64,000 bases of DNA from Syntrophales bacterium (GTDB lineage Bacteria; Desulfobacterota; Syntrophia; Syntrophales; PHBD01). The notes beneath the pieces are model-generated. The model saw only the letters and a list, made by a program, of their open reading frames with translations. It did no database searches and was not told the DNA's origin. This document shows, piece after piece, positions 1-18,432 of the stretch. The stretch's first letter is position 1. Each line of letters opens with the position of its first letter. Location of the stretch: contig OY764159.1 of NCBI GenBank assembly GCA_963668175.1, positions 3,936,001 through 4,000,000 of the forward strand, read 5' to 3'. Both the position numbers and the translations under genes were made by a program.

Positions 1-1424
1 CCACGGTTGATATCGGATTCGTCGCACAGGACTTCATTTAAGCGCTCATTGAATTCGGCAAGCGTCCTTTCCAGATCGTTCGGAAAGAGCACCGATATGA
101 GATCGGCGAGGTCCGCCGCCAATCCTTTCCGGATGGCATCCTTGGCGCGGGCCTTGATATTGCGGGCATTCATCAGGAAAAAGAAGAGGGTGACATAGGC
201 GGCCTTCAGGGTCTCTCTATGGGAGGCCCCGGGCGAATCGATGCAGAGCCGGTTAAGGTCTTTTAAGACAGTCCTTATGCAGCCGAGGAAACTGGGATAG
301 AGCAACGCGTATTGCTTGCGATTGATCAGGTCCGCCAAGTCGGCGATATTCTCCTCGACGCCGTTGATGCTTTTCTCCAGAAGGGCCGCTAAATTCCCGA
401 AGGATCCTTTCGCCTCGTAAACCGCCTTTCGCCAGTTATAACATGTATCGACCACGGTCCGGAGGGTATCGGTGCGGCTGTGATAGCAGACGGCCTCGGG
501 CACGTAGCGCGTTTTATAACCTTTCGACAGAAGCAGTTTGGAGATATAGACGTCCTCCGTGTTGGTCTTGAGGATATCCCAGTACCCGCCCGCTTCTTTC
601 AGGGCTTTGACGGCAAAGACCGTATTGCTGCCGAAGAGGATAACATCGTCCAGACACTTGTCGCCGTGATCCTGGGGCATCCGGACCTGCCGCCAGCGGT
701 CGACAACCGTCACCGTATTCTTTTCGATGAGTCTGCCGCCGACCCCGGCAATGCCCTCCCGGTCAAAAGCGAGCATCAGCCTCTCCAGCCAGAACGGATC
801 GGGAACGGCATCGGTGTCCACCGTTGCGAGAAACGCCCCCTTGGCTGTATGGAGGGCCGTGTTCCTTGCCGCGGCGAGCCCCTTGTTTCCGTCATGGGAT
901 ACAATAACCACGGGATACTTCTCGGCGATGGAGATTGAGCGGTCTGTGGAACCGTCATCGATGATCAGGATCTCCTCAATGGGATAGCTTTGTGCGAGGA
1001 TACCGTCAAGGGCTGCGGCAATGTACTTTTCGACATTATAACAGGGCAGATAGAAAGTGACGGAACGGCGGGGGCAGGTTCTTTCCAGTTCCGCGATGCG
1101 TTGTGTAATGGATTCTTCGCCCGGACGCCGGCTGGCCATTTGCTTAAGCAGAGCGACCTCCGAATAACGGAGCCCCAGCCGGCCGTAAAGCTTCTGCAAG
1201 GCCCGGTATGCCGGATCGAAATCAGGATCTGCGGCAATGGCTTGTCGGTAGTTGCGTATGGCCCATTCATGGAGACCTAAATCATGCAGAATGTCCGCAT
1301 GGGCGGTCAGACCTTCGGCGACCGCCCCTCTTCCGATCCGCTGTTCCGCCGCGCGGTACGCCGCCAGGAAGCCGTCGATCTCTTTTTGATGGCAGGAAGT
1401 GAAGCAGTCGTCATGGATCATCAT
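1..1424 (-). CDS. TPR-like N-terminus plus GT2 glycosyltransferase; partial, runs off the window start and is missing from the ORF track
   Basis: Manual translation gives MMIHDDCF...IRNYRQAIAADPDFDPAYRAL (TPR-like), then SVTFYLPCYNVEKYIAAALDGILAQSYPIEEILIIDDGSTD...NKGLAAARN...TVDTD, which are GT2 motifs. No stop before base 1. An alternative TTG start lies at 1502. Confidence 0.85.
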   Translation of the reverse strand, partial: MMIHDDCFTSCHQKEIDGFLAAYRAAEQRIGRGAVAEGLTAHADILHDLGLHEWAIRNYRQAIAADPDFDPAYRALQKLYGRLGLRYSEVALLKQMASRRPGEESITQRIAELERTCPRRSVTFYLPCYNVEKYIAAALDGILAQSYPIEEILIIDDGSTDRSISIAEKYPVVIVSHDGNKGLAAARNTALHTAKGAFLATVDTDAVPDPFWLERLMLAFDREGIAGVGGRLIEKNTVTVVDRWRQVRMPQDHGDKCLDDVILFGSNTVFAVKALKEAGGYWDILKTNTEDVYISKLLLSKGYKTRYVPEAVCYHSRTDTLRTVVDTCYNWRKAVYEAKGSFGNLAALLEKSINGVEENIADLADLINRKQYALLYPSFLGCIRTVLKDLNRLCIDSPGASHRETLKAAYVTLFFFLMNARNIKARAKDAIRKGLAADLADLISVLFPNDLERTLAEFNERLNEVLCDESDINR

Positions 1425-1498
1425 ACGGATGCCGTCTTGTGAATATTGCGGCCGCTTTTCTGCATGCTGCTTGTTCTTTCCAGCCGCGGAGATACTTA

Positions 1499-2650
1499 TC
1501 AAGCCAGGATGGCGTAAAAACGCTTTCCCGTCTCCTGCCAGGTCATTCTTCGCAGGTCTTCACCCGCACGTTCGCCGATCTTCCGCAGGGCATCCCTGTG
1601 ATGGTAGGCCCAATCCAGTTTCGCGACCGCTTCCTCCAGGTCCGGTTCATCCCAGGTGGCGACATTCTGTTCGTTATTGGCAATCGTGATGCTTCTCAGA
1701 TTCGCCAGTTTCAGACAGTTGTCGTCCGTCATAACATCCTTATGACCGCTTGAAAAGGAGGCGATGACGGGCTTCCCGCAGGCCATGTACTCCATCATGA
1801 CCAGGTTGGTTCCCCCTTCGCACCGGTTCGGAAACAGACCGATGTCCGTATTTTTATAGAGGCGCGGCATCATGATATTCGGGTACAGCGGCAGCGTGAT
1901 GACCCGGCCGATGTCGATGCCGTTGTCGCCGAGTATTTGGTTGATCAATGCTATGTAATCGTCCGCCGCCGGCGAAAACCGGATATGGGGGGAAGCAGCC
2001 ATCGTATGCATGCTCGCCGGCCACTGATTGAACCAGCTGTTGACCAGAACGGTGTCCTTGTAGCGGTCCTGCAGAACTTTGTAAGCGCGGATGACGATGT
2101 CCTGCCCTTTCCTCAATTCGAATTTGCCGCCGGAAAAGACGACAAAGTGATCCCGTAGATACTCTTTCTCATTATAAAGAGGGTTGAAGATCGTCGGGTC
2201 GATGCCCTGGATGACCGTGGTCACATGCCGAAGACCGTAGCTTCTTAAAACTTCCTCGCACCAACCGGAACCGGTAACCACCGTATCGAAGAACTTGACG
2301 CTGTTTTCGATGTACGAAGCGGACAGGATGTTGTTCTCGAAGAACGTGTAACCGACGTTGTTCGTGCCTCGCAGGCGGGGATAGTTGGAAGACCCGGTGA
2401 TGTTGTTGATGGCCTGGAGTACGGGATAATCGACTTCCAGGGGTTGACCGGAAGTGATCCACTGCTGCTCCCGGTCGGATACGAGCGTCCGCTGAAGAAG
2501 CCGAAAGTCCAGTTCGTCCCCTATGGCGTTCATATCGAAGCCCTCGGTGACGAGGCGGACTTCGGTTATTCTCGACAATTCCTTGACGATATACTTCCCG
2601 CAAACGCCCCAACCGTGAAAGCTTCCCGTGGGAAGAGCAGCAAGAATCAT
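1499..2650 (-). CDS. GT4 (GT-B) glycosyltransferase
   Basis: GKFELRKGQD and NRCEGGTNLVMMEYMACGKPVIAS (EX7E-type GT4 motif). Confidence 0.85.
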   Translation of the reverse strand: MILAALPTGSFHGWGVCGKYIVKELSRITEVRLVTEGFDMNAIGDELDFRLLQRTLVSDREQQWITSGQPLEVDYPVLQAINNITGSSNYPRLRGTNNVGYTFFENNILSASYIENSVKFFDTVVTGSGWCEEVLRSYGLRHVTTVIQGIDPTIFNPLYNEKEYLRDHFVVFSGGKFELRKGQDIVIRAYKVLQDRYKDTVLVNSWFNQWPASMHTMAASPHIRFSPAADDYIALINQILGDNGIDIGRVITLPLYPNIMMPRLYKNTDIGLFPNRCEGGTNLVMMEYMACGKPVIASFSSGHKDVMTDDNCLKLANLRSITIANNEQNVATWDEPDLEEAVAKLDWAYHHRDALRKIGERAGEDLRRMTWQETGKRFYAILA

Positions 2651-6013: not shown

Positions 6014-7458
6014 TGTATGTCTCGCATATCGATTGTCGGTTTTCTGCAGATGAAGGCCCAGTATTCTTCCGCGCCGGCCGGTGAATCAAAATTGAGATTG
6101 ATCGCTTCAAGCAGCATGAATCCCGCCCGGCCGATAAGGGAGGCCCACATTTCTTTGCTCATGATACTGTAATGGTTGATGTTCGATTCATGACGGCCCG
6201 TCGTGCCGGGAGCCGGCATTTCCAGATAGAGATACCCCCCGGAATCCAGTACCCGGAAGAATTCCGACAGGGTGAAGAAGGGAAACAGGCTGTGTTCGAT
6301 ACAGTGCCTGACCCAGACGAAGTCGAACGACCCATCGGGAAACATGAGGAATGACTGGTCCATTTTGAGGACGTGGTGGTCGCGGGCGCGGCACACCTTG
6401 ATATCCTCATCGCTGATGGTGATACCCGTCGCCCGATGTCCTTTTTCGCGAAACAGATCGAGGGCCACACCCGGTCCGCATCCCACATCCAGTATTCTCG
6501 CCGGAGCCGTCAGGGAATAGCGGCCGAAGAATTCGTTCACCATCTGAACCGTGATCTGTGTATGTTCGACCGTGACGGGTTCCGCATAGGATTGTTCCTG
6601 AACTCTGGCGATAAAATCGAGCAGCCTTTCCACGCCTATCGCCGGGAATACATCGGGATCCGTGCGTTTCCCGGGCGACGGGTCCGCCGGCTGAACAGGT
6701 TTGGGCCTTACCGAGGCATCTGCCCCGTCAATAACCCTCCGCCACTTCTGAACGAACTTATCCCGGTTGGAAAGGAGGATGTCGTTCCGATACAACGTCC
6801 GCCCAAAATAATGAATGGGCGTGTCGCCCTCGGATTGGGATATGCCCCAGTGGTGTTCGAAATCGGTCACCGGCACCGCATAACAGGCGAGTCCCGCCCT
6901 TTTCAACTGCAATCCCATATCCCACTCTTCGAAGAAACACGGGCTGTATCGGACATCGAACGTCAATCCGTTCTCCAGGAACCTCTCCAGATGGATGGCG
7001 AAAAAGAAACCGGAAACACCGTCGCAGGATATCGGCTCCGCGAAGTTCCCCTTCTGAAAGTAGCGGATGTCGCAGAGATGCCGATAATCGATCCACGACC
7101 CCTGCGGGCCCACAATCACCGCCCGGTCCAGCGAGAAGAGGTACTTTTCCAGTTCGGGAATGGCGGCGGGTCCGATTTTGAGGTCGGAATTCATGATGTA
7201 GACCGCCTTGCCTTCCGCCATATCGATGCCCATATTCCACGACCTGCTCACCCCGGCGTTCAGATTGTTGAAACAATACTTGTCGATCCGGGGATGGTCT
7301 TTCAAGGCTTCATAAACCTCCCGGCTGTTGAAAATGCAGATGACCTCCCCCGACACGGCTTCCAGGTCTGTAAGAAGGGTCCGGATGTTATACGGGCTGT
7401 GGGGCGAGAAATCGATGATGGGAATGACGACGCTTCTTGGTATTTGTTCAGACTGCAA
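6010..7458 (-). CDS. GT2 glycosyltransferase fused to a SAM methyltransferase
   Basis: N-half has NAGVSRSWNMG, IMNSD and FFEEWD. C-half has ILDVGCGPG and FDFVWVRHCIEHS. TTG start with GAGG RBS. Confidence 0.85.
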   Translation of the reverse strand: MQSEQIPRSVVIPIIDFSPHSPYNIRTLLTDLEAVSGEVICIFNSREVYEALKDHPRIDKYCFNNLNAGVSRSWNMGIDMAEGKAVYIMNSDLKIGPAAIPELEKYLFSLDRAVIVGPQGSWIDYRHLCDIRYFQKGNFAEPISCDGVSGFFFAIHLERFLENGLTFDVRYSPCFFEEWDMGLQLKRAGLACYAVPVTDFEHHWGISQSEGDTPIHYFGRTLYRNDILLSNRDKFVQKWRRVIDGADASVRPKPVQPADPSPGKRTDPDVFPAIGVERLLDFIARVQEQSYAEPVTVEHTQITVQMVNEFFGRYSLTAPARILDVGCGPGVALDLFREKGHRATGITISDEDIKVCRARDHHVLKMDQSFLMFPDGSFDFVWVRHCIEHSLFPFFTLSEFFRVLDSGGYLYLEMPAPGTTGRHESNINHYSIMSKEMWASLIGRAGFMLLEAINLNFDSPAGAEEYWAFICRKPTIDMRDIH

Positions 7459-7564
7459 AAAACACCTCGCGGAAGAAGATTATTTTAGCCCCTCTTTGCC
7501 CTGATCCCTATAACGGCGGAAGCCTGAGACCGGCCGGTTCGGATCTGTATGCAAAAGCTATCAA

Positions 7565-7580
7565 AGCAAGTTGCATGCCG
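7565..7580 (-). promoter_or_regulatory. Sigma54 promoter for the GT/methyltransferase run
   Basis: CGGCAT-GCAAC-TTGCT (GG-N10-GC) in intergenic DNA. Confidence 0.75.
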
Positions 7581-7690
7581 CAGATGGAATTATAACCGGC
7601 ATATAACACGTTTTCGCTTTTTTCACATCATGATAGACGTTTCCAAAAGACCGGGCGCCAAGCCTCCTGCCGACTCAGCTTTGGCTGTTC

Positions 7691-9193
7691 CTATCGGCCC
7701 CGAGACGGCACGGCCAGCTCCGCGGCCACCTCCCCCATTACCGTATCCCACGCTCCAGGCTCTCCCTGACGAAACAACCGCATCGTCGGATACCACGGAC
7801 TGTCTCCCCGTCCCAGCATCCAGCGCCAATCCGGGGCATACGGCAGAAGCGTCCAGACAGCCTTCCCCATCGCTCCCGCCAAATGAACCACCGCCGTGTC
7901 CACAGATATCACCAAATCCAGGTTCCCGACCAGCCCCGCCGTATCGCTGAAATCATTCAACTCGCCCGTGTAATCCAATAACGCCATCCCCTCAGGTGCC
8001 TCCTTCGACTCCCCGGACGCCTCACCCTTCTGCAAACTGTAAAAACGCACTCCCGACACTTTCCCCAACGGACCATACTGCAAAAGCTTCAGCGTCCGGT
8101 AGCGATCCTTCTTGTGCGTCGGTCGACCTGCCCAGGACAATCCTACCTTCAGCCCAGGGCCGTCTCCGGTCAACCGCTCACGCCAATAGCGCAAAGACTC
8201 TTCCGTCCCCCTGATATACGGCACCTCCCCCGGTATCGTCGCAAGTTCCGTCCCGAACATCCCAGGCAAACTCATTATCGGGCATCGATAATCGTACGGC
8301 GGAAGAACCTCGCCTCGCCCATATACCGCCGATATCCCCTCAACCCCCGACAGCAGACGGACCAGCTCCTTCTGGCACTCCACCAACACCTCCGCCCCGC
8401 GATACGACAACTGCCGCGCGTAACGGATGAACTGGATCGTATCCCCGAAGCCCTGCTCCGTATAAACCAGTATCCGCTTCCCTGCTAAATCCTCACCTCG
8501 CCACTCCTGACCGCCGAGATCACGCTTCGCGAAAATCTCCCGCATCTCCCGGCGCCACTCATACTCCTTCCAGCCTTCCGCAAAATTACCCGTCAAAAGC
8601 AGCGCCAAAGACAAATTCCAGTGCGCCTCCGCAAAACCCGGCTTTAATCCGATAGCACGACGGAAATAGGGTATGGCCGCAGCGTCTTCATTATAAGCAT
8701 CCTGCAGGGCATTCCCGTAATTGTAATGGGCTTCGGCCATATTAGGGTCTATGGCGGCGGCCTTTTCATAATGCGCAAGGGCCTCTTGGAACAGCTTCTT
8801 CTCCTTGAACGCGTTGCCCAGGTTATAGAAAGCCCCGGCATCGTCTCCTTTTCCCGCAATGATCTCCCGGAAGCACGAGATGGCTTCGTCGATCCGGCCT
8901 TCCGCGAGGAGAGAATTCCCGAGATTGCCGTATATATCGGCATTTCCTGGCTTATAGATAAGCGCTTTTCGCGAATAGGCGACGGCTTCAGCAAAATTCT
9001 TCTTCTGATAAAAGAGCGCCCCCAAAAGCTGCAAGGCATCGGCGTGCTCCGGTTCATCCTCGAGAATAGCCTTGTAGGCTTCTTCGGCCTGATCGAGTCT
9101 GCCGTCCAGGTGATAGGCAAGGGCCTTTCGCATGCCGTCGAGACCGCCATGCCGGCTGGAGACATTCGCATATTTGGGATAATCATCGTCCAT
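7691..9193 (-). CDS. TPR plus GT-B/GT9-like protein (copy A)
   Basis: TPRs, then YTEQGFGDTIQFIRY, LDLVISVDTAVVHLAGAMGK, DWRW..R.DSPWYPTMRLFRQ. Confidence 0.9.
   Translation of the reverse strand: MDDDYPKYANVSSRHGGLDGMRKALAYHLDGRLDQAEEAYKAILEDEPEHADALQLLGALFYQKKNFAEAVAYSRKALIYKPGNADIYGNLGNSLLAEGRIDEAISCFREIIAGKGDDAGAFYNLGNAFKEKKLFQEALAHYEKAAAIDPNMAEAHYNYGNALQDAYNEDAAAIPYFRRAIGLKPGFAEAHWNLSLALLLTGNFAEGWKEYEWRREMREIFAKRDLGGQEWRGEDLAGKRILVYTEQGFGDTIQFIRYARQLSYRGAEVLVECQKELVRLLSGVEGISAVYGRGEVLPPYDYRCPIMSLPGMFGTELATIPGEVPYIRGTEESLRYWRERLTGDGPGLKVGLSWAGRPTHKKDRYRTLKLLQYGPLGKVSGVRFYSLQKGEASGESKEAPEGMALLDYTGELNDFSDTAGLVGNLDLVISVDTAVVHLAGAMGKAVWTLLPYAPDWRWMLGRGDSPWYPTMRLFRQGEPGAWDTVMGEVAAELAVPSRGR
7713..8662. 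repeat. Near-identical copy of 13941..14890 (offset 6228); its lower part also matches 11567..12366
   Basis: Direct sequence comparison; the protein is nearly identical from RRAIGLKPGFAEAHWN to AAELA. Confidence 0.95.
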
Positions 9194-11549
9194 GCGTCAC
9201 CTTGACGAGTTCCCGGCGGATGCGTTCAACGACATCCCCCCACTGCCCCTGTTCGGTCTGGCGGAACAACCTCATCGTCGGATACCAGGGGCTGTCGTCC
9301 CGATCCAGCATCCAGCGCCAGTCCGGCGAACGCATCAACATCGTCCAGACGGGCTTGCCCATTGCACCCGCCAGATGCGCTGTGGCCGTGTCGACGGAGA
9401 TCGTCAAATCGAGGTTCTCGATCAGGGCGGCCGTATCGGCAAAATCCCGGATATCTTCGGTGTAATCGACGATCGTCATCCCGGCCGGCGCATCTTTTAT
9501 CTGGCCGGACGCCTCTCCTTTCTGAACGCTGTAGAACGTGACGCCCCGTATCGAAAAAAGGGGCAGAAAATCCTTCAGCAGGCATGATTTGATGGCGGGA
9601 TGCGTACCGCCCCAGACCAGCCCCGCCCTTACCGTACCGTCGCCTCCGGCAAGTCTTTCCCGCCATGTTTTTGCTAAATCGGCATCCGCCTTGATATAGG
9701 GGACATCGACGGGCAACGTATCCAGAGACGTATCGAACATCATAGGAAGCGACAAGAGGGGGATATGGACGTCATAATGCGGCAGGGCCTCTCCGCGCAA
9801 AACGATTTTTCGCACGCCCTTAACCCCTCTGAAAATCGTCTGCAGTTCCTTTTGACAATGGACGATCGCATCCGCGCCCAGATCGGCAACCATGCGGACA
9901 TACCGGACAAAATGAATCGCGTCCCCGAAACCCTGTTCCGTATAGATCAGGATAGTCTTGCCTTTTATATCGGAACCGTCCCAAAGCGGTTTCTCATAGT
10001 CGTAAACCAGGGCGACATCCGGTAGTTTCTTTCTCCATTCGTATTTCTTCCATCCTTCCCGGAAATTTCCTGCAAAAAGATAGTTGAGGGACATATTGAA
10101 ATGGGCCTCGGCGTAATCGGGCTTCATGGCCACCGACGTTTGAAAGGACCGGAGGGCCTCGTCAAACAACCCCAAAAATTGGAGGACATTCCCGAGATTG
10201 GTGTAGGCCTCCGCCTTCCCCGGCTGAAGTTCGATCACCTTCTCGAAGTGCGCCTTCGCCTCCTCGAACCGCTCCTGCTCCTGGAGGGCCAGGCCCATGT
10301 TGTTATAGGCCTCCGCGTACCCGGGGTTGAGCTCTATCGCCTTCCGGTAATACCCCACCGCCTCCTCAAAGCACCGCTTCTCCTTGTACGCATTCCCAAG
10401 ATTGTAATAGCCCTTCTCCCCCTCCGGGTCGAGGCGCACAACCTCACGGTAGCACAAAACCGCGTCGTCCAGACGGCCCTGCTCGCGAAACACGTTCCCC
10501 AAATTGAACAGCGCCCCCACGTACTCCCCGTCCAGCTTCAACACGCCCTGGTAATACGCCACCGCCTCATCCAAAATCCCCTTGTCACGCAACGCATTCG
10601 CCAAATTGTACTGCGCCAAAACCACTCGACCGTCTACCCGAACCGCCTCACGATACTGCTCGATCGCCTCATCCAACATCCCGCGCGACTGCAACAGCAA
10701 TCCCAGATTGTTCCGGGCCTCCACAAACTCCGGCTTCAATGCCACTGCCTTGCGATACAAAAACATCGCTTCATCATTCCGCCCCTGGCTCTGATACGCA
10801 AAACCAAGGTTATGGCATGCCCGCGCATTCCCCGGTTCGCGTCCCAATACCTCCAAAAAACACGAAACGGCCTCCTCGCAGGCACCACGATCCTGCAGCA
10901 ATACACCCAGACCGTTCCAGGCATCCAGGTATCCGCCGTCCAGCGCCAATGCCTTCCGGTATGCAGCCGCAGCCTCATCAAGAAGCCCCTGCTCCCGCAA
11001 TGCAACTCCCAGCTGATACGGCACCACCGCCACACCCGGAAGCAATGCCTCCGCACGCCGGTAACTCGCAACCGCCTCCGCAAGAAGACCCAGCTCCCGC
11101 AGTGCATTCCCCAGATTATAATGCGCCTCGCCGTATCCTTCGTTCAGTTCCAACGCCCGGCGGTAACACGATAACGCCTGCTCAATCCTCCCCGTCTCCT
11201 TCAAGGCGATACCCAGGCTGTTGTATATCTCCGCATTCCCCTCGTCACGGCGTAAGGCCTCCTGATAACAGGATATCGCCTTTTCCAGATGCCCCGAATC
11301 GTAATAGATGTTCCCCAGCGTATGGTACGCTCCCCCGTTCCCGGGAGCGACGGATACAACCCGCTCGAAGTATACGGCTGCCGCTCCGTAGTCCCCCTCC
11401 TGATAGCGTATCCAGCCCAATAGCTCCAAGGCCCGCGTATCGTCCGGGCGCTCCTCTAAAACCGCCCCGTACAGGCGCGCCGCCTCCGTTAACCGTCCGG
11501 ACCGCTGATGCTCCACGGCCTCTTGCATTGTCTCTTCCAGATTCATCAT
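9183..11549 (-). CDS. Multi-TPR plus GT-B/GT9-like protein (copy B, divergent GT domain)
   Basis: Long TPR array; YTEQGFGDAIHFVRY, LDLTISVDTATAHLAGAMGK, DSPWYPTMRLFRQ. Confidence 0.9.
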   Translation of the reverse strand: MMNLEETMQEAVEHQRSGRLTEAARLYGAVLEERPDDTRALELLGWIRYQEGDYGAAAVYFERVVSVAPGNGGAYHTLGNIYYDSGHLEKAISCYQEALRRDEGNAEIYNSLGIALKETGRIEQALSCYRRALELNEGYGEAHYNLGNALRELGLLAEAVASYRRAEALLPGVAVVPYQLGVALREQGLLDEAAAAYRKALALDGGYLDAWNGLGVLLQDRGACEEAVSCFLEVLGREPGNARACHNLGFAYQSQGRNDEAMFLYRKAVALKPEFVEARNNLGLLLQSRGMLDEAIEQYREAVRVDGRVVLAQYNLANALRDKGILDEAVAYYQGVLKLDGEYVGALFNLGNVFREQGRLDDAVLCYREVVRLDPEGEKGYYNLGNAYKEKRCFEEAVGYYRKAIELNPGYAEAYNNMGLALQEQERFEEAKAHFEKVIELQPGKAEAYTNLGNVLQFLGLFDEALRSFQTSVAMKPDYAEAHFNMSLNYLFAGNFREGWKKYEWRKKLPDVALVYDYEKPLWDGSDIKGKTILIYTEQGFGDAIHFVRYVRMVADLGADAIVHCQKELQTIFRGVKGVRKIVLRGEALPHYDVHIPLLSLPMMFDTSLDTLPVDVPYIKADADLAKTWRERLAGGDGTVRAGLVWGGTHPAIKSCLLKDFLPLFSIRGVTFYSVQKGEASGQIKDAPAGMTIVDYTEDIRDFADTAALIENLDLTISVDTATAHLAGAMGKPVWTMLMRSPDWRWMLDRDDSPWYPTMRLFRQTEQGQWGDVVERIRRELVKVTHGR

Positions 11550-12366
11550 CCTAGCTCGGATAGGCAGCCAGCTCCGCCGCCACCTCCCCCATTACCGTAT
11601 CCCACGCTCCAGGCTCTCCCTGACGAAACAACCGCATCGTCGGATACCACGGACTGTCTCCCCGTCCCAGCATCCAGCGCCAATCCGGAGCATACGGCAG
11701 AAGCGTCCAGACAGCCTTCCCCATCGCTCCCGCCAAATGAACCACCGCCGTGTCCACAGATATCACCAAATCCAGGTTCCCGACCAGCCCCGCCGTATCG
11801 CTGAAATCATTCAACTCGCCCGTGTAATCCAATAACGCCATCCCCTCAGGTGCCTCCTTCGACTCCCCGGACGCCTCACCCTTCTGCAAACTGTAAAAAC
11901 GCACTCCCGACACTTTCCCCAACGGACCATACTGCAAAAGCTTCAGCGTCCGGTACACATCCTTCTTGTGCGTCGGTCGACCTGCCCAGGACAATCCTAC
12001 CTTCAGCCCGGGTCCCTCTCCGGTCAACCGCTCACGCCAATAGCGCAAAGACTCTTCCGTCCCCCTGATATACGGCACCTCCCCCGGTATCGTCGCAAGC
12101 TCCGTCCCGAACATCCCTGGCAAACTCATTATCGGGCATCGATAATCGTACGGCGGAAGAACCTCGCCTCGCCCATATACCGCCGATATCCCCTCAACCC
12201 CCGACAGCAGACGGACCAGCTCCTTCTGGCACTCCACCAACACCTCCGCCCCGAGATACGACAACTGCCGCGCATAGCGGATGAACTGGATCGTATCCCC
12301 GAAGCCCTGCTCCGTATAAACCAGTATCCGCTTCCCTGCTAAATCCTCACCTCGCCACTCCTGACC
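10179..12366. repeat. Direct repeat, unit 1 (about 2.19 kb, period 2374)
   Basis: Matches 12553..14740 except for scattered SNPs and one diverged patch of about 45 bp; spans a gene junction. Confidence 0.95.
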
Positions 12367-13923
12367 ATCTTGGACATACGTCCCGGCGACGTCGGCGACC
12401 TTTCTCCGCCATTCGTATTCCTTCCACCCTCTCTGTAAATCGCCCGAGAGCAGAACGGTCAGGGACATGTTGAAATGGGCCTCGGCCAGGTCGGGCTGTA
12501 TTTCCACGGCCCGCTCAAAGGATTTGACGGCTTCATCGAAACGTCCCATGGATTGGAGGACATTCCCGAGATTGGTGTAGGCCTCCGCCTTCCCCGGATG
12601 GCGTTCGATCACCTTCTCGAACTGCGCCTTCGCCTCCTCGAATGCTTCACGTTCCTGAAAGAGCAGTCCCAACTCGTGGCGGGCCTCCGCGTACCCGGGG
12701 TTGAGCTCTATCGCCTTCCGGTAATAGCCCACCGCCTCCTCAAAGCACCGCTTCTCCTTGTACGCATTCCCAAGATTGTAATAGCCCTTCTCCCCCTCCG
12801 GGTCGAGGCGCACAACCTCACGATAACACAAAACCGCATCGTCCAAACGGCCCTGCTCGCGAAACACGTTCCCCAAATTGAACAGCGCCCCCACGTACTC
12901 CCCGTCCAGCTTCAACACGCCCTGGTAATACGCCACCGCCTCATCCAAAATCCCCTTGTCACGCAACGCATTCGCCAAATTGTACTGCGCCAAAACCACT
13001 CGACCGTCTACCCGAACCGCCTCACGATACTGCTCGATCGCCTCATCCAACATCCCGCGCGACTGCAACAGCAATCCCAGGTTGTTCCGGGCCTCCACAA
13101 ACTCCGGCTTCAATGCCACTGCCTTGCGATACAACAACATCGCTTCATCATTCCGCCCCTGGCTCTGATACGCAAAACCAAGGTTATGGCATGCCCGCGC
13201 ATTCCCCGGTTCGCGTCTCAATACCTCCAAAAAACACGAAACGGCCTCCTCGCAGGCACCACGATCCTGCAGCAATACACCCAGACCGTTCCAGGCATCC
13301 AGGTATCCGCCGTCCAGCGCCAATGCCTTCCGGTATGCAGCCGCAGCCTCATCAAGAAGCCCCTGCTCCCGCAATGCAACTCCCAGCTGATACGGCACCA
13401 CCGCCACACCCGGAAGCAATGCCTCCGCACGCCGGTAACTCGCAACCGCCTCCGCAAGAAGACCCAGCTCCCGCAGCGCATTCCCCAGATTATAATGCGC
13501 CTCGCCGTATCCTTCGTTCAGTTCCAACGCCCGGCGGTAACACGATAACGCCTGCTCAATCCTCCCCGTCTCCTTCAAGGCGATACCCAGGCTGTTGTAT
13601 ATCTCCGCATTCCCCTCGTCACAGCGCAAGGCCTCCTGATAACAGGATATCGCCTTTTCCAGATGCCCCGAATCGTAATAGATGTTCCCCAGCGTATGGT
13701 ACGCTCCCCCGTTCCCGGGAGCGACGGATACAACCCGCTCGAAGTATGCGGCTGCCGCTCCGTAGTCCCCCTCCTGATAGCGTATCCAGCCCAATAGCTC
13801 CAAGGCCCGCGTATCGTCCGGGCGCTCCTCTAAAACCGCCCCGTACAGGCGCGCCGCCTCCGTTAACCGTCCGGACCGCTGATGCTCCACGGCCTCTTGC
13901 ATTGTCTCTTCCAGATTCATCAT
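11551..13923 (-). CDS. Multi-TPR plus GT-B/GT9-like protein (copy C)
   Basis: N-terminal TPRs nearly identical to copy B; GT domain identical in protein to copy D. Confidence 0.9.
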   Translation of the reverse strand: MMNLEETMQEAVEHQRSGRLTEAARLYGAVLEERPDDTRALELLGWIRYQEGDYGAAAAYFERVVSVAPGNGGAYHTLGNIYYDSGHLEKAISCYQEALRCDEGNAEIYNSLGIALKETGRIEQALSCYRRALELNEGYGEAHYNLGNALRELGLLAEAVASYRRAEALLPGVAVVPYQLGVALREQGLLDEAAAAYRKALALDGGYLDAWNGLGVLLQDRGACEEAVSCFLEVLRREPGNARACHNLGFAYQSQGRNDEAMLLYRKAVALKPEFVEARNNLGLLLQSRGMLDEAIEQYREAVRVDGRVVLAQYNLANALRDKGILDEAVAYYQGVLKLDGEYVGALFNLGNVFREQGRLDDAVLCYREVVRLDPEGEKGYYNLGNAYKEKRCFEEAVGYYRKAIELNPGYAEARHELGLLFQEREAFEEAKAQFEKVIERHPGKAEAYTNLGNVLQSMGRFDEAVKSFERAVEIQPDLAEAHFNMSLTVLLSGDLQRGWKEYEWRRKVADVAGTYVQDGQEWRGEDLAGKRILVYTEQGFGDTIQFIRYARQLSYLGAEVLVECQKELVRLLSGVEGISAVYGRGEVLPPYDYRCPIMSLPGMFGTELATIPGEVPYIRGTEESLRYWRERLTGEGPGLKVGLSWAGRPTHKKDVYRTLKLLQYGPLGKVSGVRFYSLQKGEASGESKEAPEGMALLDYTGELNDFSDTAGLVGNLDLVISVDTAVVHLAGAMGKAVWTLLPYAPDWRWMLGRGDSPWYPTMRLFRQGEPGAWDTVMGEVAAELAAYPS

Positions 13924-14740
13924 CCTAGCTCGGATAGGCAGCCAGCTCCGCCGCCACCTCCCCCATTACCGTATCCCACGCTCCAGGCTCTCCCTGACGA
14001 AACAACCGCATCGTCGGATACCACGGACTGTCTCCCCGTCCCAGCATCCAGCGCCAATCCGGAGCATACGGCAGAAGCGTCCAGACAGCCTTCCCCATCG
14101 CTCCCGCCAAATGAACCACCGCCGTGTCCACAGATATCACCAAATCCAGGTTCCCGACCAGCCCCGCCGTATCGCTGAAATCATTCAACTCGCCCGTGTA
14201 ATCCAATAACGCCATCCCCTCAGGTGCCTCCTTCGACTCCCCGGACGCCTCACCCTTCTGCAAACTGTAAAAACGCACTCCCGACACTTTCCCCAACGGA
14301 CCATACTGCAAAAGCTTCAGCGTCCGGTACACATCCTTCTTGTGCGTCGGTCGACCTGCCCAGGACAATCCTACCTTCAGCCCGGGTCCCTCTCCGGTCA
14401 ACCGCTCACGCCAATAGCGCAAAGACTCTTCCGTCCCCCTGATATACGGCACCTCCCCCGGTATCGTCGCAAGCTCCGTCCCGAACATCCCTGGCAAACT
14501 CATTATCGGGCATCGATAATCGTACGGCGGAAGAACCTCGCCTCGCCCATATACCGCCGATATCCCCTCAACCCCCGACAGCAGACGGACCAGCTCCTTC
14601 TGGCACTCCACCAACACCTCCGCCCCGAGATACGACAACTGCCGCGCATAACGGATGAACTGGATCGTATCCCCGAAGCCCTGCTCCGTATAAACCAGTA
14701 TCCGCTTCCCTGCTAAATCCTCACCTCGCCACTCCTGACC
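12553..14740. repeat. Direct repeat, unit 2
   Basis: Matches 10179..12366 at offset 2374. Confidence 0.95.
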
Positions 14741-15805
14741 GCCGAGATCACGCTTCGCGAAAATCTCCCGCATCTCCCGGCGCCACTCATACTCCTTCCA
14801 GCCTTCCGCAAAATTACCCGTCAAAAGCAGCGCCAAAGACAAATTCCAGTGCGCCTCCGCAAAACCCGGCTTTAATCCGATAGCACGACGATAGAAACGG
14901 ATGGCTTCCGGGCAATCCAATGTATCGTACAGGGACACGCCCATGTTGTTAAGGGCATCGGTATGGTCCGGATTGACCTCCAGGGCCCGGCCGGTATATC
15001 GGATCGCCCCTTCCAAATCTTGGCTGCCGTAAGCCATAACACCCAGGCTGTAATAGGCATCGGCGATAGAGGGATCAATCCGTAAAGCCTGCCAGTAGGC
15101 CGCGGCGGCGTTTTCAACATCGCTTTCCTCCCGGAAGACATTCCCCAGATTGTTATAAGCGGCGGCGTAGCAGGGGCTGATCTTGAGGGCCGTTTCGTAG
15201 CAGATCCTGGCTTCGGCAAGTTCTCCCCGTTCCTGCAGAAGCGTTCCCGTATTATTGAAGGCCTCTGCAAAATCGGGCTTTAACTCGATGGCCTTGCGGA
15301 AACAGGTGAGGGCTTCGTCCGGCCGGTTTTTCTCTTTCATGACGTTCCCCAGGTTGTTGTAGGCCTCCGGAAACGCCGCCCGGCATCCTATGGCCTTTTG
15401 ATAGCATGAAAGAGCCGCATCGAGATCACCGACCTCCTGAAAAACGACGCCTAAATTATAATGAAGCTCGCAATCGGTCGGATCGAGAGACAACCCCCGT
15501 CGATAGCTGGCAATGGCGGCATCTGGCCGGCCTGCACCTTTGTAGCTGTTCCCCAGATTCTTGTAGGCATCCACCCGTTTCGGGTCGAGGTTGATTGCGG
15601 CCTCTGTATTCACGATGGCCCTGTCGTACCGTCCTGTTTCATAATCCAGAAGCCCCATCAGGTACAGGACATCGATGTGATAAGGTTCGGTCTCCAGAAT
15701 GCTTCGGTACAGCATCTCGGCTTCCGCAAGCCTTCCCGCCCGGTGATGCTCCAAGGCGTTCACAATCATATCATCCGTTACAGCATTAGCCATTTTACCG
15801 TTCAC
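13925..15805 (-). CDS. Multi-TPR plus GT-B/GT9-like protein (copy D)
   Basis: Unique canonical TPRs (P..AEAYNNLG), then the shared GT domain. Start is GTG 15805 or ATG 15793. Confidence 0.9.
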   Translation of the reverse strand: MNGKMANAVTDDMIVNALEHHRAGRLAEAEMLYRSILETEPYHIDVLYLMGLLDYETGRYDRAIVNTEAAINLDPKRVDAYKNLGNSYKGAGRPDAAIASYRRGLSLDPTDCELHYNLGVVFQEVGDLDAALSCYQKAIGCRAAFPEAYNNLGNVMKEKNRPDEALTCFRKAIELKPDFAEAFNNTGTLLQERGELAEARICYETALKISPCYAAAYNNLGNVFREESDVENAAAAYWQALRIDPSIADAYYSLGVMAYGSQDLEGAIRYTGRALEVNPDHTDALNNMGVSLYDTLDCPEAIRFYRRAIGLKPGFAEAHWNLSLALLLTGNFAEGWKEYEWRREMREIFAKRDLGGQEWRGEDLAGKRILVYTEQGFGDTIQFIRYARQLSYLGAEVLVECQKELVRLLSGVEGISAVYGRGEVLPPYDYRCPIMSLPGMFGTELATIPGEVPYIRGTEESLRYWRERLTGEGPGLKVGLSWAGRPTHKKDVYRTLKLLQYGPLGKVSGVRFYSLQKGEASGESKEAPEGMALLDYTGELNDFSDTAGLVGNLDLVISVDTAVVHLAGAMGKAVWTLLPYAPDWRWMLGRGDSPWYPTMRLFRQGEPGAWDTVMGEVAAELAAYPS

Positions 15806-16029
15806 CAGACCTTCCGGAAAGGAGAGAATCTTAAAATGTCTCCGGTCAATGCAATCAATATACGATTAGCGATAGTTATCAGATGACGGTCTTTTTTTCG
15901 ACCACAAAACCCGATTGGAAGGACCGATCTCAAACACATTTCTTTGAAATGAAGATCGCCATGTTTAATATTCCGAATTAGTGGAAATGAAGGAATGTCT
16001 TTCTGAGGTAAGATCTTTACCGGCGCATC

Positions 16030-16112: not shown

Positions 16113-16496
16113 CTATTCATCGCTGGGCGAACCCCGGAGTCCGGCGGCAATATTGAGATTTGCATTGATGATGAACGTCAATTTTTCGGCTGCGGGAAAT
16201 GCCATGACATCGAATATCCGTTTGTCGATAAAAACACTTAACCTAAGGATATCCTGCCGTAATTCCTTCGGCAGAGGATTCTCCGGCGAAGACAGCTCCC
16301 CTTGAAAAAGACTCCAGATCAGCTGGTTGTATTTGAGCGCCTCCTGCAGTCGCTCTTTGCGATCAGGCGCATCCCAGTTATCCTGGCAATCCTTAAGCAG
16401 CATGGCTGCTTTGGTCAGAACCGCAGCTTCAAGCTCACGCCCCGTCAAAGTGTCCATTTGAGCTTTTTGGTATGCGTTCATCGGGGTTGCGTTCAT
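16113..16496 (-). CDS. flaF: Flagellar biosynthesis regulator FlaF
   Basis: AYQ..GRELEAAVLTKAA, ALKYNQLIWSLFQGELSSPENPLPKELRQDILRLSVFI, ININ-like NIAAGL. Confidence 0.9.
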   Translation of the reverse strand: MNATPMNAYQKAQMDTLTGRELEAAVLTKAAMLLKDCQDNWDAPDRKERLQEALKYNQLIWSLFQGELSSPENPLPKELRQDILRLSVFIDKRIFDVMAFPAAEKLTFIINANLNIAAGLRGSPSDE

Positions 16497-16878
16497 TGCT
16501 CAGCAAAACCTCCTGTTCATAATTTATCAATTTTTTTGAATACTTCAACGCCAGATAGTACTCGTTGCCGATAATGGAATCGCTTATCTTATCCACATAC
16601 GGTCGCACACTCGGTGCCGCCTGCACGACATCGCGAGCAAAACCCCAGTAAAGATCGTGATATCTTGCCAAGTTTTCTTTGTCAATATACATCATCTGGA
16701 CAACAAAGTAAATCCTTTTACATGGCGACGTTGCGTCTCTTTCCTGCAGGATATCTTTCTCCCGAAGCACCGTGACATTGTTTTCCACGTAAAGACTGCA
16801 TTTCGTATTGCCGTTCGTAATGACGGCCGAGCCAAGAAGTAATTTTTCGTGCGGTTTGAGATTGATCTTGAGTGCCAT
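16435..16878 (-). CDS. flbT: Flagellin translational regulator FlbT
   Basis: MALKINLKPHEK, VLREKDILQERDATSPCKRIYFVVQMMY, YYLALKYSKKLINYE. Confidence 0.9.
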   Translation of the reverse strand: MALKINLKPHEKLLLGSAVITNGNTKCSLYVENNVTVLREKDILQERDATSPCKRIYFVVQMMYIDKENLARYHDLYWGFARDVVQAAPSVRPYVDKISDSIIGNEYYLALKYSKKLINYEQEVLLSNERNPDERIPKSSNGHFDGA

Positions 16879-17013: not shown

Positions 17014-17511
17014 TTATTTAGGTGCAATAATCAGGCCGGATTCGGAAGCTGTCTTCTCCTCCGTACCATCCTGTTGCTGGGCCGTCGCCCCGGAATCCTT
17101 TTCCTCATCAGCCCGACTATTCTCAGTCCCGTTTTTATCGGGCGGAATGGTCAGGTGATCAATCTCCCTTCTCAAAGCCGCAAAGCTTTTGAGCATCTGC
17201 ACTCTTTCTTTGCTGCCCTCAAGAAAAGGGGGGTAGTTTTTGATGATTTCTTCCGGCTGCCCCTTTGTCCTGATCGGAACCTCTTCGGCCTTATTTTCGG
17301 CGGCATTGGGCTTCGTCATGTCTACAGCTTTCTCGCTGATACTCAGCTTGACGCCTTCGTTTTTGGCCGATTCCGGAGACGTGCCGTTTTTAAGAGCAAC
17401 CGTATCTTCCGCAACGGCATCCCTTTTGGCCGTTCCCCGAGCATCCGGAGACGAATAAACCCGGGTATATTCATATGAAGGGCTCGCATCATTAATTTTG
17501 CCGATAGCCAT
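17014..17511 (-). CDS. Hypothetical flagellin-linked protein
   Basis: 165 aa ORF with GAGG RBS, filling the gap between flagellin and flbT; core IIKNYPPFLEGSKERVQMLKSFAALRREIDHLTIPP. Confidence 0.75.
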   Translation of the reverse strand: MAIGKINDASPSYEYTRVYSSPDARGTAKRDAVAEDTVALKNGTSPESAKNEGVKLSISEKAVDMTKPNAAENKAEEVPIRTKGQPEEIIKNYPPFLEGSKERVQMLKSFAALRREIDHLTIPPDKNGTENSRADEEKDSGATAQQQDGTEEKTASESGLIIAPK

Positions 17512-17598: not shown

Positions 17599-18432
17599 CT
17601 AGAACAGTTTCAGAATCGACTGGGCGGCCTGAGATGCCAGACTCAGAGAGGTGATGCCAAGGGATTGACGGGTCTGCAGCATCAGCATGTTCGCCGATTC
17701 CTCGTTCATATCGGCCAGCGTGAGGTTATCGGAACCAGTCTGTTCGACATTGATGACGTTCGTCGTGAAAGTCTGCCGTGTCGTAACGACGTTAAGGTTT
17801 GACGCAAGGCTCGAAGCCTGGGTTCGTAAGTTCGTCGTTGCCGTCGTGAGGAACGTAAGGGCTGTTTCCATAACGGCATTGGTCGTCGTGGCCCAGTTTG
17901 AGATCTGGGCTGCGAAGCTCAAGCTCAGGTTGGCCAGGGTTCTCGCTTCAAAACCGGCGATATCGAGTTTGGCAGATCCGTCTTCGTTGAACTTAACGGT
18001 CAGCGTCGTCGTGGAGGCAAGGAGGTTCGTGCCCTTATAACTCGAGTCTTTAGCCAGGGATGTGATCTGACTCATGATCGTATCGAACTGCGTTGCGTAA
18101 GACGCTCTGGATGCCGTATCAGCCGTGGCAAGGGCCGAGTTGGCAATACCTTGCGCCTGCTGGATCAAAGTCAGGAGGCGATCAATACCTTCACTGGCCG
18201 CCTTGACTGTCTGGACAGCTTCCGACATACCGTCCTTTCTCAGGGAAAGGTCGCTGGCACGCTGCAAATGGGATTTGGATGCAAAATAGTTGACGGGGTC
18301 GTCGACGGCGGTGTTGACTTTCTTACCCGAGGCCAGTCTTGTTTGGGTTCGGTTCAAGAGGTCCAGGGTATCCTGTAGAGAAACCAGGTTGCTACGCATT
18401 CCGGTGGTTAACGAAATATCATTAACTGACAT
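17599..18432 (-). CDS. fliC: Flagellin, short alphaproteobacterial-like type
   Basis: ISLTTGMRSNLVSLQ, TQTRLASGKKVNTAVDDPVNYF, LTLADMNEESANMLMLQTRQSLG..SLSLASQAAQSILKLF. Confidence 0.95.
   Translation of the reverse strand: MSVNDISLTTGMRSNLVSLQDTLDLLNRTQTRLASGKKVNTAVDDPVNYFASKSHLQRASDLSLRKDGMSEAVQTVKAASEGIDRLLTLIQQAQGIANSALATADTASRASYATQFDTIMSQITSLAKDSSYKGTNLLASTTTLTVKFNEDGSAKLDIAGFEARTLANLSLSFAAQISNWATTTNAVMETALTFLTTATTNLRTQASSLASNLNVVTTRQTFTTNVINVEQTGSDNLTLADMNEESANMLMLQTRQSLGITSLSLASQAAQSILKLF

Follow-up and report, generated by a model that had tools for sequence, protein, structure and literature searches.

FlmG of Caulobacter is a soluble flagellin glycosyltransferase in which a TPR domain binds the flagellin and a GT-B domain sets the sugar donor (PMC7591256; bioRxiv 10.1101/2022.03.25.485807), and an engineered swap of these FlmG domains was reported to be functional (bioRxiv 10.1101/2022.03.25.485807). 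According to a 2023 preprint, FlmG is confined to the Caulobacterales (10.1101/2023.12.03.569772). The division between acceptor and donor choice has so far been addressed only via that one engineered chimera. Interlocus gene conversion, leading to concerted evolution of tandem paralogues, is a general process with bacterial textbook examples.

Here, we analyzed a window of 64,000 nucleotides of a Syntrophales genome (contig OY764159.1, positions 3,936,001 to 4,000,000), which carries a mosaic array of four tandem TPR-glycosyltransferase genes directly downstream of a flagellin locus. Among the papers listed in the literature searches, none described tandem or mosaic FlmG-type arrays. An earlier note on this DNA had proposed that the array is built from shared blocks and that these are reassorted by recombination or gene conversion, which could diversify flagellar glycosylation.

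Organization of the array and its genomic context

The four close-packed genes on the minus strand are numbered G1 to G4 in reading order (D, C, B and A, respectively, in the earlier note) and encode, according to the ORF list, proteins of 626, 790, 788 and 500 aa, each consisting of a TPR array joined to a GT9-like GT-B domain of about 295 aa. As judged from ORF, translation and TPR families, G1 (13925-15805) combines its own TPR array with the blocks X and Y. G2 (11551-13923) starts 1 nt past the G1 stop and contains block Z, its own linker and Y, while G3 (9183-11549), starting 1 nt past the G2 stop, contains Z, its own linker and a divergent GT domain, W. G4 (7691-9193) overlaps the end of G3 by 11 nt and is composed of its own short TPR array, X, Y and its own tail of 7 aa. 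The reading frames of all four genes are intact, the invariant GT motifs are kept in all, and TPR families were matched in each of the four proteins. A fifth paralogue is located 12 kb from the array.

The array follows directly on flagellin-orf-flbT-flaF, comprising, likewise on the minus strand, the gene for a flagellin of 277 aa (17599-18432; PF00669), flbT (16435-16878; PF07378, E 1.2e-41) and flaF (16113-16496; PF07309, E 1.9e-32). Besides FlgL, this flagellin gene was the only one found genome-wide. Promoter-like sites numbered 6 (shuffles, 4.5 ± 2.3) and terminator-like sites 5 (shuffles, 9.2 ± 3.3), neither being above background; one terminator-like hairpin is located at the flaF stop (16113-16099). 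The array is embedded in an island of more than 30 kb that encodes methyltransferases, GT2/GT4-like transferases fused to TPRs, and epimerases/dehydratases of sugars. The island genes that were scanned include none of the NeuB family; three NeuB-family matches were located in other parts of the genome (4.29 Mb, 4.31 Mb and 0.07 Mb), with NeuB homologues about 340-360 kb from the island.

The C-terminal 299 aa were predicted to adopt a GT-B fold (pLDDT 90.8), and the best solved matches to this model are GT9 enzymes, namely 3tov (E 1.9e-8, TMq 0.60), WaaC, WaaF (1psw) and TibC, which is a protein heptosyltransferase. With the profile PF01075 (cut-off 22 bits), W scored 23.7 bits and Y 19.2 bits, i.e. 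below the cut-off, both spanning just profile positions 174-212 of 247, and scores with the NCBIfam heptosyltransferase models were far under their cut-offs. A sequence search of the Y domain against PDB chains gave a chance match only (E 0.38), and searches against NCBIfam and ESM Atlas gave nothing or weak GT9 hints.

Predicted function of the encoded enzymes

Judged by architecture and gene position, G1-G4 most likely have an FlmG-like function, and the analogy drawn in the earlier note fits on both counts. An N-terminal TPR part and a C-terminal GT-B part are combined in one soluble protein, and the genes are linked to flagellin, flaF and flbT, in an order that is the same in a related genome (G002, see below). 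As paralogous soluble enzymes with an N-terminal docking array, each would dock via its TPRs on flagellin or another axial protein and, prior to export, transfer a sugar to it in the cytoplasm. With one flagellin gene for four to five enzymes, separate acceptors do not suggest themselves; the assumption that the TPR arrays serve different flagellins is not supported in a genome holding one flagellin gene plus FlgL.

Having been shaped by the same evolutionary mechanism, the enzymes might alternatively target a different protein or elongate a glycan, in an island that lies beside flagellar genes. The single flagellin for many enzymes would suit this explanation, as would the very large size of the TPR + GT9-like family (E <= 1e-10 for 7,999 of the 8,000 candidates scored; present in 121 of 301 sampled alphaproteobacterial genomes), which occurs in many contexts. 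However, in two genera the genes have kept their place right behind flagellin-flbT-flaF, and an alphaproteobacterial relative, a protein of 598 aa with TPRs and a Y-like part (E 5e-26), has an FlmG-type gene context, adjoining flagellin-like, NeuB, CMP-transferase, aminotransferase and dehydratase genes. Also, flaF, flbT and flbA-flaG of Caulobacter are named as contiguous in a reference title within an eLife paper. This alternative is rather unlikely, though it deserves some weight.

If G1-G4 are flagellin glycosyltransferases, G2 and G3 share a docking arm and differ in the catalytic domain, and G1, G2 and G4 share a catalytic domain and differ in the docking arm. They would thus offer natural chimeras, within one organism, for testing the division of acceptor and donor choice between the two domains.

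Shared blocks and their borders

Self-BLAST and mismatch counts bore out that Y occurs three times and Z and X twice each, with DNA identities of 98.4-99.9%. Positions 7713-8662 align with 13941-14890 (X+Y of G4 vs G1; 98.7% over 950 bp, 12 mismatches), 7713-8512 with 11567-12366 (Y of G4 vs G2; 98.4% over 800 bp) and 9843-12366 with 12217-14740 (93.9% over 2,526 columns). Between G2 and G1, Y (11551-12366 vs 13925-14740) differs at 1 of 816 positions, and the Z core of G3 and G2 (10308-11549 vs 12682-13923) at 12 of 1,242. W, in contrast, is just 72.8% identical to Y over the best 279 bp. At the protein level, the translations confirm that the same GT domain is combined with three TPR arrays, and the same TPR array with two GT domains.

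The X+Y block of G4 (minus strand; Y 7713-8512, X 8513-8662) is, across genomes, closest in DNA to H4, from the related array in G002. Block X of G1 (14741-14890, minus strand) comprises the last TPR/capping helix and the interdomain loop. The G2-specific linker (12367-12681, minus strand) covers the last two TPRs and the interdomain loop; its protein sequence shares 64% identity with the G3 linker and, over 59 aa, 73% with a protein of another organism (P0029). No near-identical copy of this linker and no other copies of any block were found elsewhere in the genome.

Of the borders described in the earlier note as sharp and in frame, those of X and Y and the 3′ end of Y are indeed so. At its far border, Z ends in a graded manner, with 38-47 identical positions per 50 from 10183 to 10332, so that Z, given before as about 1.37 kb, is a 1.24-kb core with a patchy edge. 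Nor are Y and Z independent blocks: both lie inside a single unbroken tract of 2,059 bp, which runs over the stop/start junction and recurs with a period of 2,374 bp. The first copy (12682-14740, minus strand) consists of Y of G1, the junction and Z of G2, and the second (10308-12366, minus strand) of Y of G2, the junction and Z of G3. The two differ at 13 positions, 12 within 10353-11374 and one at 12277.

To judge the identical runs, mismatch positions were permuted 2,000 times per gene pair. The longest runs, 726 for G1-G2, 258 for G2-G3 and 266 for both G1-G4 and G2-G4, were reached in none of the 2,000 permutations, whose maxima ranged from 40 to 79. For the pairs G3-G4 and G1-G3, used as controls, the longest run was 16, a length attained by 107 and 61 of 2,000 permutations, respectively. 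In the other four pairs, the identical runs exceed what is expected from the overall divergence, as is typical of gene conversion.

Assembly and read depth

The genome is a single closed contig of 4.57 Mb. In Logan contigs from two runs of organism A (X5 and X7), which may be the source data of the genome assembly, breaks fall exactly at the block borders, around the X block of G1 at 14711-14740 and 14861-14890. Depths for linker, Z, Y, X and unique sequence were 16.7, 27.8, 45.3-51.2, 36.4 and 21.2 in one run and 50, 88.6, 138.8-151, 99.4 and 57.1 in the other. These values fit copy numbers of about 1:2:3:2:1, in short-read contigs whose reach ends before the long-range order. Organism B, a close relative, has the same blocks and the same depth pattern.

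Related arrays and orthologues

A comparison with related genomes, as proposed in the earlier note, revealed a four-gene array (H1-H4) at the same place in G002, a MAG of a different genus in the same family. The order FlgL-flagellin-orf-FlbT-FlaF-four TPR-GT genes-methyltransferase-GT-GT/TPR is the same as in the window, and the four-gene array is judged to be ancestral. G002 has a junction-crossing tract of its own (7160-7840 = 8998-9678; 681 bp, 99.7%), which passes over the H1|H2 and H2|H3 junctions, is only about 70-77% identical to the window and has its start in the C-terminal lobe of the GT domain, within the final ~70 codons.

In a tree of GT domains, G1, G2 and G4 cluster together, and this Y clade is sister to H4 (84/87). 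The W domain of G3 groups with H3 and an orthologue from a metagenomic stretch, L004 (98/96). P0012 and P0013, which appear to be encoded on one contig, judging by the shared listed length of 70,871 bp, are paired (100/99), as are P0019 and P0029 (98/97), the latter two perhaps from different organisms. From AIPFYRRAIG to GRAA, only 1 residue differs between P0012 (G4-type) and P0013 (G1-type), and the upstream border of this stretch is the same as that of block X in the window.

The flanking TPR arrays show different relationships. The N-terminal 305 aa of G1 are orthologous to H1 (50.3%) and P0013 (61.8%), and the N-terminal 172 aa of G4 to P0007 (76.6%), P0019 (72.1%), P0012 (67.3%) and H4 (47.2%). 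Overall, the unique TPR arrays are 47-77% identical to orthologues vs 33-42% to paralogues. By these sequence comparisons, the GT segments group by genome and the flanking unique TPRs by gene, as is characteristic of concerted evolution.

In a metagenome scan, 553 of 611 candidate stretches were relatives, and only L004 was close (82%). On it, a gene of G3 type is followed by one of G4 type and this by the start of a Z-type gene; the G4-type protein bears a G1/G2-type tail. L004 was considered as a shuffled variant and set aside, because an assembly path of short reads through the Y block (0.8 kb) that the genes share can produce the same picture. A whole-length search with G3 was dominated by long TPR proteins and recovered no G2/G3 orthologues. 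Another candidate, a 593-aa TPR + Y-like protein (L164 in G262), is encoded between pyrimidine and metG genes, outside a flagellar context, and was likewise discarded.

Origin of the mosaic

The mosaic was probably formed by repeated homologous recombination among the paralogues, through gene conversion or unequal crossover, i.e. by concerted evolution of an ancestral FlmG-like array. The blocks would be nearly identical because the paralogues repeatedly overwrite one another. Mismatch counts, permutations, the GT tree, TPR identities and the comparison of P0012 with P0013 all agree with the earlier proposal of recombination or gene conversion. The evolutionary process is an ordinary one, and the array is a clean instance of it, not a new kind of system.

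Three steps may be proposed. First, a G4-type X+Y block would have replaced the C-terminal part of G1, with X+Y being homogenized in G1 since before the split from the ~75%-identical relative; the direction from G4 to G1/G2 is suggested by one tree node (84/87). Second, a tract that begins at the GT start, passes the 1-nt junction and takes in the first 414 codons of the following gene would have been copied between the G1|G2 and G2|G3 junctions, whereby G2 would have acquired the TPR array of G3 and the GT domain of G1 around its own diverged linker. Third, the final ~1 kb of the tract (Y plus gene start) was presumably homogenized again more recently, since it holds 1 mismatch vs 12 in the other half. 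The tract ends would fall in stretches conserved among the paralogues, and the clean domain-level chimeras seen here would be happenstance. Endpoints seem to track local homology, not domain borders, because the main tract crosses the junction and the tract of G002 starts inside the GT domain.

Selection might in addition keep, via recurrent gene conversion, one donor-specific domain on three docking arrays and one array on two catalytic domains, which we regard as doubtful. If so, the single flagellin, alone or together with hook-associated proteins, would carry sugars of two kinds, placed at several defined sites, and the junction-spanning tract would keep neighboring donor and acceptor modules in step. 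The array would then be the first natural evidence outside the Caulobacterales that the TPR part picks the acceptor and the GT part the donor.

It is improbable that recombination is used or selected to reassort TPR and catalytic modules and thereby to diversify flagellar glycosylation, e.g. against flagellotropic phage. As the border of Y falls within the loop that joins the capping helix to the first GT-fold strand, the chimeras respect the domains. FlmG domains can be swapped in experiments. Also, a second lineage (P0012/P0013) keeps the same X+Y border, but such a border is expected once the block exists, because later conversions need homology. The different gene order in L004 may result from a short-read path that was mis-threaded at the 0.8-kb repeat. 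Reassortment as modules is not supported by the tracts themselves: the main one runs from the GT start over the gene junction and stops within the TPR array of the next gene, after 414 codons, and that of G002 begins within the C-terminal lobe of the GT domain. No inverted repeats were found (0 pairs), and no recombinase gene was present among the scanned neighbors. Organisms A and B share the same blocks, and the contig sets of organism A contained no new joints or variant forms; the latter speaks weakly against diversification, since contigs are blind to rare variants. Evidence for programmed shuffling or an anti-phage role was found in none of these analyses.

Very improbable is a single recent tandem duplication of 2,374 bp, in which an unequal crossover between G1 and G3 created the chimeric G2. 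It would account for the unbroken 2,059-bp tract with its fixed period and would yield exactly Z + Y. As the full account it is rejected, because G2 has its own linker: these 315 bp match neither G1 nor G3 (60-80% to G3 in DNA, 64% in protein), have no donor elsewhere in the genome and are of a type present in P0029. Moreover, the four-gene array of G002 already has a gene at the G2 position, and the mismatches are unevenly distributed along the tract (12 vs 1).

Although near-identical repeats of 0.8-2 kb are difficult assembly targets, mis-joined repeats or an inflated copy number are hardly credible in view of the closed contig, the fixed differences between copies, the contig breaks and depths of X5 and X7, the matching pattern in organism B, and similar mosaics in related genomes and proteins.

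Comparison with known systems

Concerted evolution of the ancestral array thus remains the preferred explanation, and the locus documents this process with gene-border-crossing tracts in a bacterial operon. It also adds evidence for TPR + GT9-like enzymes beside flagellin genes well outside the Caulobacterales. As described for Caulobacter crescentus and Brevundimonas subvibrioides in the FlmG papers cited above, FlmG has the same two-domain plan, an N-terminal TPR part and a C-terminal GT-B part of ~290 aa. Its gene likewise adjoins flaF, flbT and flagellin, and the flagellin is likewise small (277 aa in the window). In contrast to the single FlmG gene, there are here four paralogues in tandem and a fifth 12 kb off; the array is likened to FlmG by architecture and position, and the host is outside the Caulobacterales. 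FlmG-class enzymes use CMP-pseudaminic or CMP-legionaminic acid and are accompanied by genes for its synthesis; among the island genes scanned, no Pse/Leg genes were seen. The engineered FlmG(Cc-TPR)-(Bs-GT), in which one TPR domain is placed on the GT domain of another enzyme, has natural counterparts in G2 (Z+Y) and G3 (Z+W); these, however, arose by recombination within one array, and their activities are predicted.

Several paralogous putative flagellin glycosyltransferase genes in a flagellar glycosylation locus are also known from the maf family of Campylobacter jejuni NCTC11168, where maf1 is identical in sequence to maf4 (PMC13130089). Maf enzymes have a GT-A-type MAF_flag10 domain, whereas G1-G4 have a GT9-like GT-B domain, and the passages on maf in that paper describe variation by phase-variable tracts and no block mosaic. 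The best structural matches of the Y domain are the GT9 enzymes WaaC and WaaF and TibC (PDB 2h1h, 1psw, 4rap/4rb4, 3tov). Pfam PF01075 weakly matches its C-terminal lobe, and TibC demonstrates that protein glycosylation is possible with a GT9-type fold. These solved chains of 303-403 residues differ from Y, with sequence identities of 10-14% and TM-scores of only 0.5-0.6.

With interlocus gene conversion in general, the array shares paralogues that are more alike within a genome than orthologues are between genomes, and sharply bounded tracts within otherwise diverged genes. It differs from usual concerted evolution in that the tracts make domain-level chimeras of a two-part enzyme and in that one of them spans a gene junction.

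Shared blocks in four tandem TPR-glycosyltransferase genes

The four minus-strand genes G1 (13925-15805, 626 aa), G2 (11551-13923, 790 aa), G3 (9183-11549, 788 aa), and G4 (7691-9193, 500 aa) together occupy positions 7691-15805 of the window, translate without internal stops, and all encode an N-terminal TPR array and a C-terminal domain of ~295 aa. A single-base spacer (TAG-G-ATG) forms the G1/G2 and G2/G3 junctions, while the start of G4 overlaps the end of G3 by 11 bases. Pfam Glyco_transf_9 matched the isolated C-terminal domains weakly and partially, with 19.2 bits for the shared GT domain Y and 23.7 bits for the divergent domain W of G3 (cut-off 22). A structure model of Y, built from an input alignment of 24 sequences, reached a mean pLDDT of 90.8. 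Because the solved structures closest to it are GT9 enzymes, i.e. 3tov (E 1.9e-8, TMq 0.60), WaaC, WaaF (1psw), and the protein heptosyltransferase TibC, the C-terminal domain is predicted to adopt a compact GT9-type GT-B fold.

Block identities were determined by self-BLAST and exact mismatch counting. Y of G2 and G1 differs at 1 of 816 bp; Y together with block X (last TPR/capping helix and interdomain loop) differs at 12 of 950 bp between G4 and G1, and the core of the shared TPR array Z at 12 of 1,242 bp between G3 and G2. W is at best ~73% identical to Y. None of 2,000 permutations of the mismatch positions reached the longest identical runs of the block-sharing pairs (726, 258, 266, and 266); for two block-free control pairs, the longest run of 16 was reached in 107 and 61 of 2,000. 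The mosaic of near-identical blocks proposed in the earlier note was confirmed. Its boundaries, described there as sharp, are so for Y, whose border is at G4 residue 228, in the modelled loop joining the capping helix to the first strand of the GT fold, but Z has a graded far border. No further copies of any block were found in the 4.57-Mb genome.

Y and Z are contiguous, which had been missed before: 10308-12366 equals 12682-14740 over 2,059 bp, apart from 13 mismatches, at a repeat period of 2,374 bp. This tract starts with the GT domain of one gene, spans the stop/start junction, and takes in the first 414 codons of the gene that follows. Since 12 of the 13 mismatches fall in the first 1,067 bp and only one in the last 992 bp (P ~0.003, binomial), the Y-proximal half was probably homogenised more recently. 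Between the two copies lies G2's own linker of 315 bp (12367-12681), which shares 60-80% DNA and 64% protein identity with the G3 linker and recurs in the database protein P0029 (73% over 59 aa).

Assembly check

The genome assembly is one contig. Window positions 12367-15900, a region that has no internal repeat, were compared with four sequencing runs. In two runs of organism A, possibly the source data of the assembly itself, the ends of pre-assembled Logan contigs coincide with block borders (12682, 13953-13982, 14711-14740, and 14861-14890). Depths for linker, Z, Y, X, and G1-unique sequence were 16.7, 27.8, 45.3-51.2, 36.4, and 21.2 in the first run and 50, 88.6, 138.8-151, 99.4, and 57.1 in the second, both fitting copy numbers of ~1:2:3:2:1 once words specific to single copies are taken into account. 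The closely related organism B (48% of sampled words; run X9) yielded the same pieces over 12367-15900 with a similar depth pattern and few SNPs, e.g. at 12685, 12901, 13516, and 15221. As far as can be told from such contigs, which cannot prove long-range order, the array is not an assembly artefact.

The array in related genomes

A Y-type domain (E <= 1e-10) was detected in 3 of 31 genomes searched (30 relatives and the window's own). Within the family the count was 1 of 8, and none of the 7 genomes from sister genus g2 had one. The family member is G002, a MAG of another genus, in which FlgL, a 277-aa flagellin, an ORF without Pfam match, FlbT, FlaF, four TPR-GT genes (H1-H4; 615, ~614, ~788, and 501 aa), a methyltransferase, and further transferases follow in the same order as in the window. 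Its four GT domains are mutually diverged. A tract at 7160-7840 recurs at 8998-9678 (99.7% over 681 bp; 97.3% over 732 bp), beginning within the last ~70 codons of the GT domain and crossing the junctions of genes 1|2 and 2|3. As window and G002 share only ~64-80% DNA identity across the array, homogenisation appears to have occurred separately in each lineage. P0012 (G4-type, 500 aa) and P0013 (G1-type, 623 aa), each recorded with 70,871 bp as its longest contig, provide a third case: they differ by one residue from AIPFYRRAIG through GRAA, a segment with the upstream border of block X and only 74-75% identity to the window's Y. These comparisons suggest an old array with young sequence identity of its blocks.

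In a ~82%-identical relative, the metagenome contig L004 (1-3857) carries a partial G3-type gene, a G4-type gene (P0007) whose protein has a G1/G2-type tail, and the start of a Z-type gene, an order unlike that of the window. Either this array is rearranged or a short-read path was mis-threaded through the shared Y block.

Concerted evolution

In a maximum likelihood tree of GT domains (16 rows), G1, G2, and G4 group together, adjoining P0007, and P0012 pairs with P0013 (100/99) and P0019 with P0029 (98/97). G3 falls in a clade with its L004 and G002 orthologues (98/96). H4 is the sister of the entire Y clade (84/87), with H1 and H2 apart. The unique TPR array of G1 is 61.8% identical to P0013 and 50.3% to H1, that of G4 76.6% to P0007, 72.1% to P0019, 67.3% to P0012, and 47.2% to H4, compared with 33-42% to paralogues; by these values, the unique arrays are plainly orthologous across genomes. 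Grouping by genome in the GT segments and by gene in the flanks is the pattern that marks gene conversion with concerted evolution, and supports the recombination or gene conversion suggested earlier. The shared GT domain was probably donated by a gene of G4 type.

That modules are reassorted as units, as was also suggested, is not borne out: conversion tracts follow local homology and run over gene borders, and ongoing gene conversion in an ancestral array is the better description. Nothing was found pointing to programmed variation or a phage link; inverted repeats, a recombinase gene among the neighbours scanned, and variant joints in the contig sets (a weak test) were all not found. An origin of G2 as a new chimera from one duplication was ruled out by its own linker, recurring in P0029, and by the G002 gene in G2 position.

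An unrelated metagenome contig (L029:3445-13231) contains five tandem genes with partial homogenisation among GT9-like paralogues. The GT9-like domain of the last gene matches gene 1 over 390 bp (97.9%) and gene 3 over 280 bp (100%), which makes this a second, independent mosaic. In a betaproteobacterial MAG (L082:7393-14892), two TPR-GT41 (OGT-like) genes share an N-terminal TPR block (598 bp, 90%).

Flagellar locus and putative glycosylation island

Upstream of G1-G4 lie a flagellin gene (17599-18432) and flbT and flaF (16113-16878, minus strand; L001:4374-5142 in G002), downstream methyltransferases and further transferases. The ORF without Pfam match between flagellin and flbT (17014-17511, minus strand, 165 aa; L001:3701-4384, plus strand, 227 aa in G002) could be a conserved component of this locus that still lacks a name. 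FlbT and FlaF, familiar as flagellin regulators of Alphaproteobacteria, occur here alongside a small 277-aa flagellin in a lineage with a Syntrophaceae-labelled relative. The genome contains one flagellin gene plus FlgL, and NeuB homologues only at sites far from the island.

Upstream of the window, the island continues with TPR-fused GT2 enzymes, two epimerase/dehydratase genes, a B12/radical-SAM protein, and G0, a fifth TPR and GT9-like paralogue ~12 kb from the array (L003:8378-10261, i.e. G000:C1:3930379-3932262; minus strand, 627 aa). G0 stands outside the block sharing and groups with its G002 orthologue H5 (L002:1581-3560) in the GT-domain tree (99/97). Two more paralogues are located at 1.71 and 2.29 Mb. 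In one long minus-strand frame of ~1,000 aa (L003:12456-14000 into window 3-1502), a B12-binding/radical-SAM part and a GT2 domain appear to be joined.

Comparison with known systems

From their architecture and position next to flagellin-flbT-flaF, we infer an FlmG-like function for G1-G4. Caulobacter FlmG is described in PMC7591256 as a 596-aa TPR and GT-B protein whose TPR half, not its GT half, binds flagellin; a reference title cited in this eLife paper gives flaF, flbT, and flbA-flaG as contiguous. With a Brevundimonas GT half, an FlmG chimera changes its donor from Pse to Leg, according to bioRxiv 10.1101/2022.03.25.485807. Y-type domains are present in 121 of 301 sampled genomes (a tally including G238) from the class of an alphaproteobacterial MAG. 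One 598-aa member from this class (E 5e-26) is flanked by a flagellin-like gene on one side and by genes for NeuB, a CMP-transferase, an aminotransferase, and a dehydratase on the other. Fused multi-module forms also occur as single frames of 1,638-2,000 aa with at least three Y-like GT domains (G032:C13:3739-7854 in the Micavibrio MAG of L083; also G220:C56, G297:C1, and G329:C12). No description of tandem or mosaic arrays of this kind was found in the literature searched. The published case that comes closest is the family of maf paralogues in Campylobacter jejuni, in which, according to PMC13130089, maf1 and maf4 are identical in sequence.
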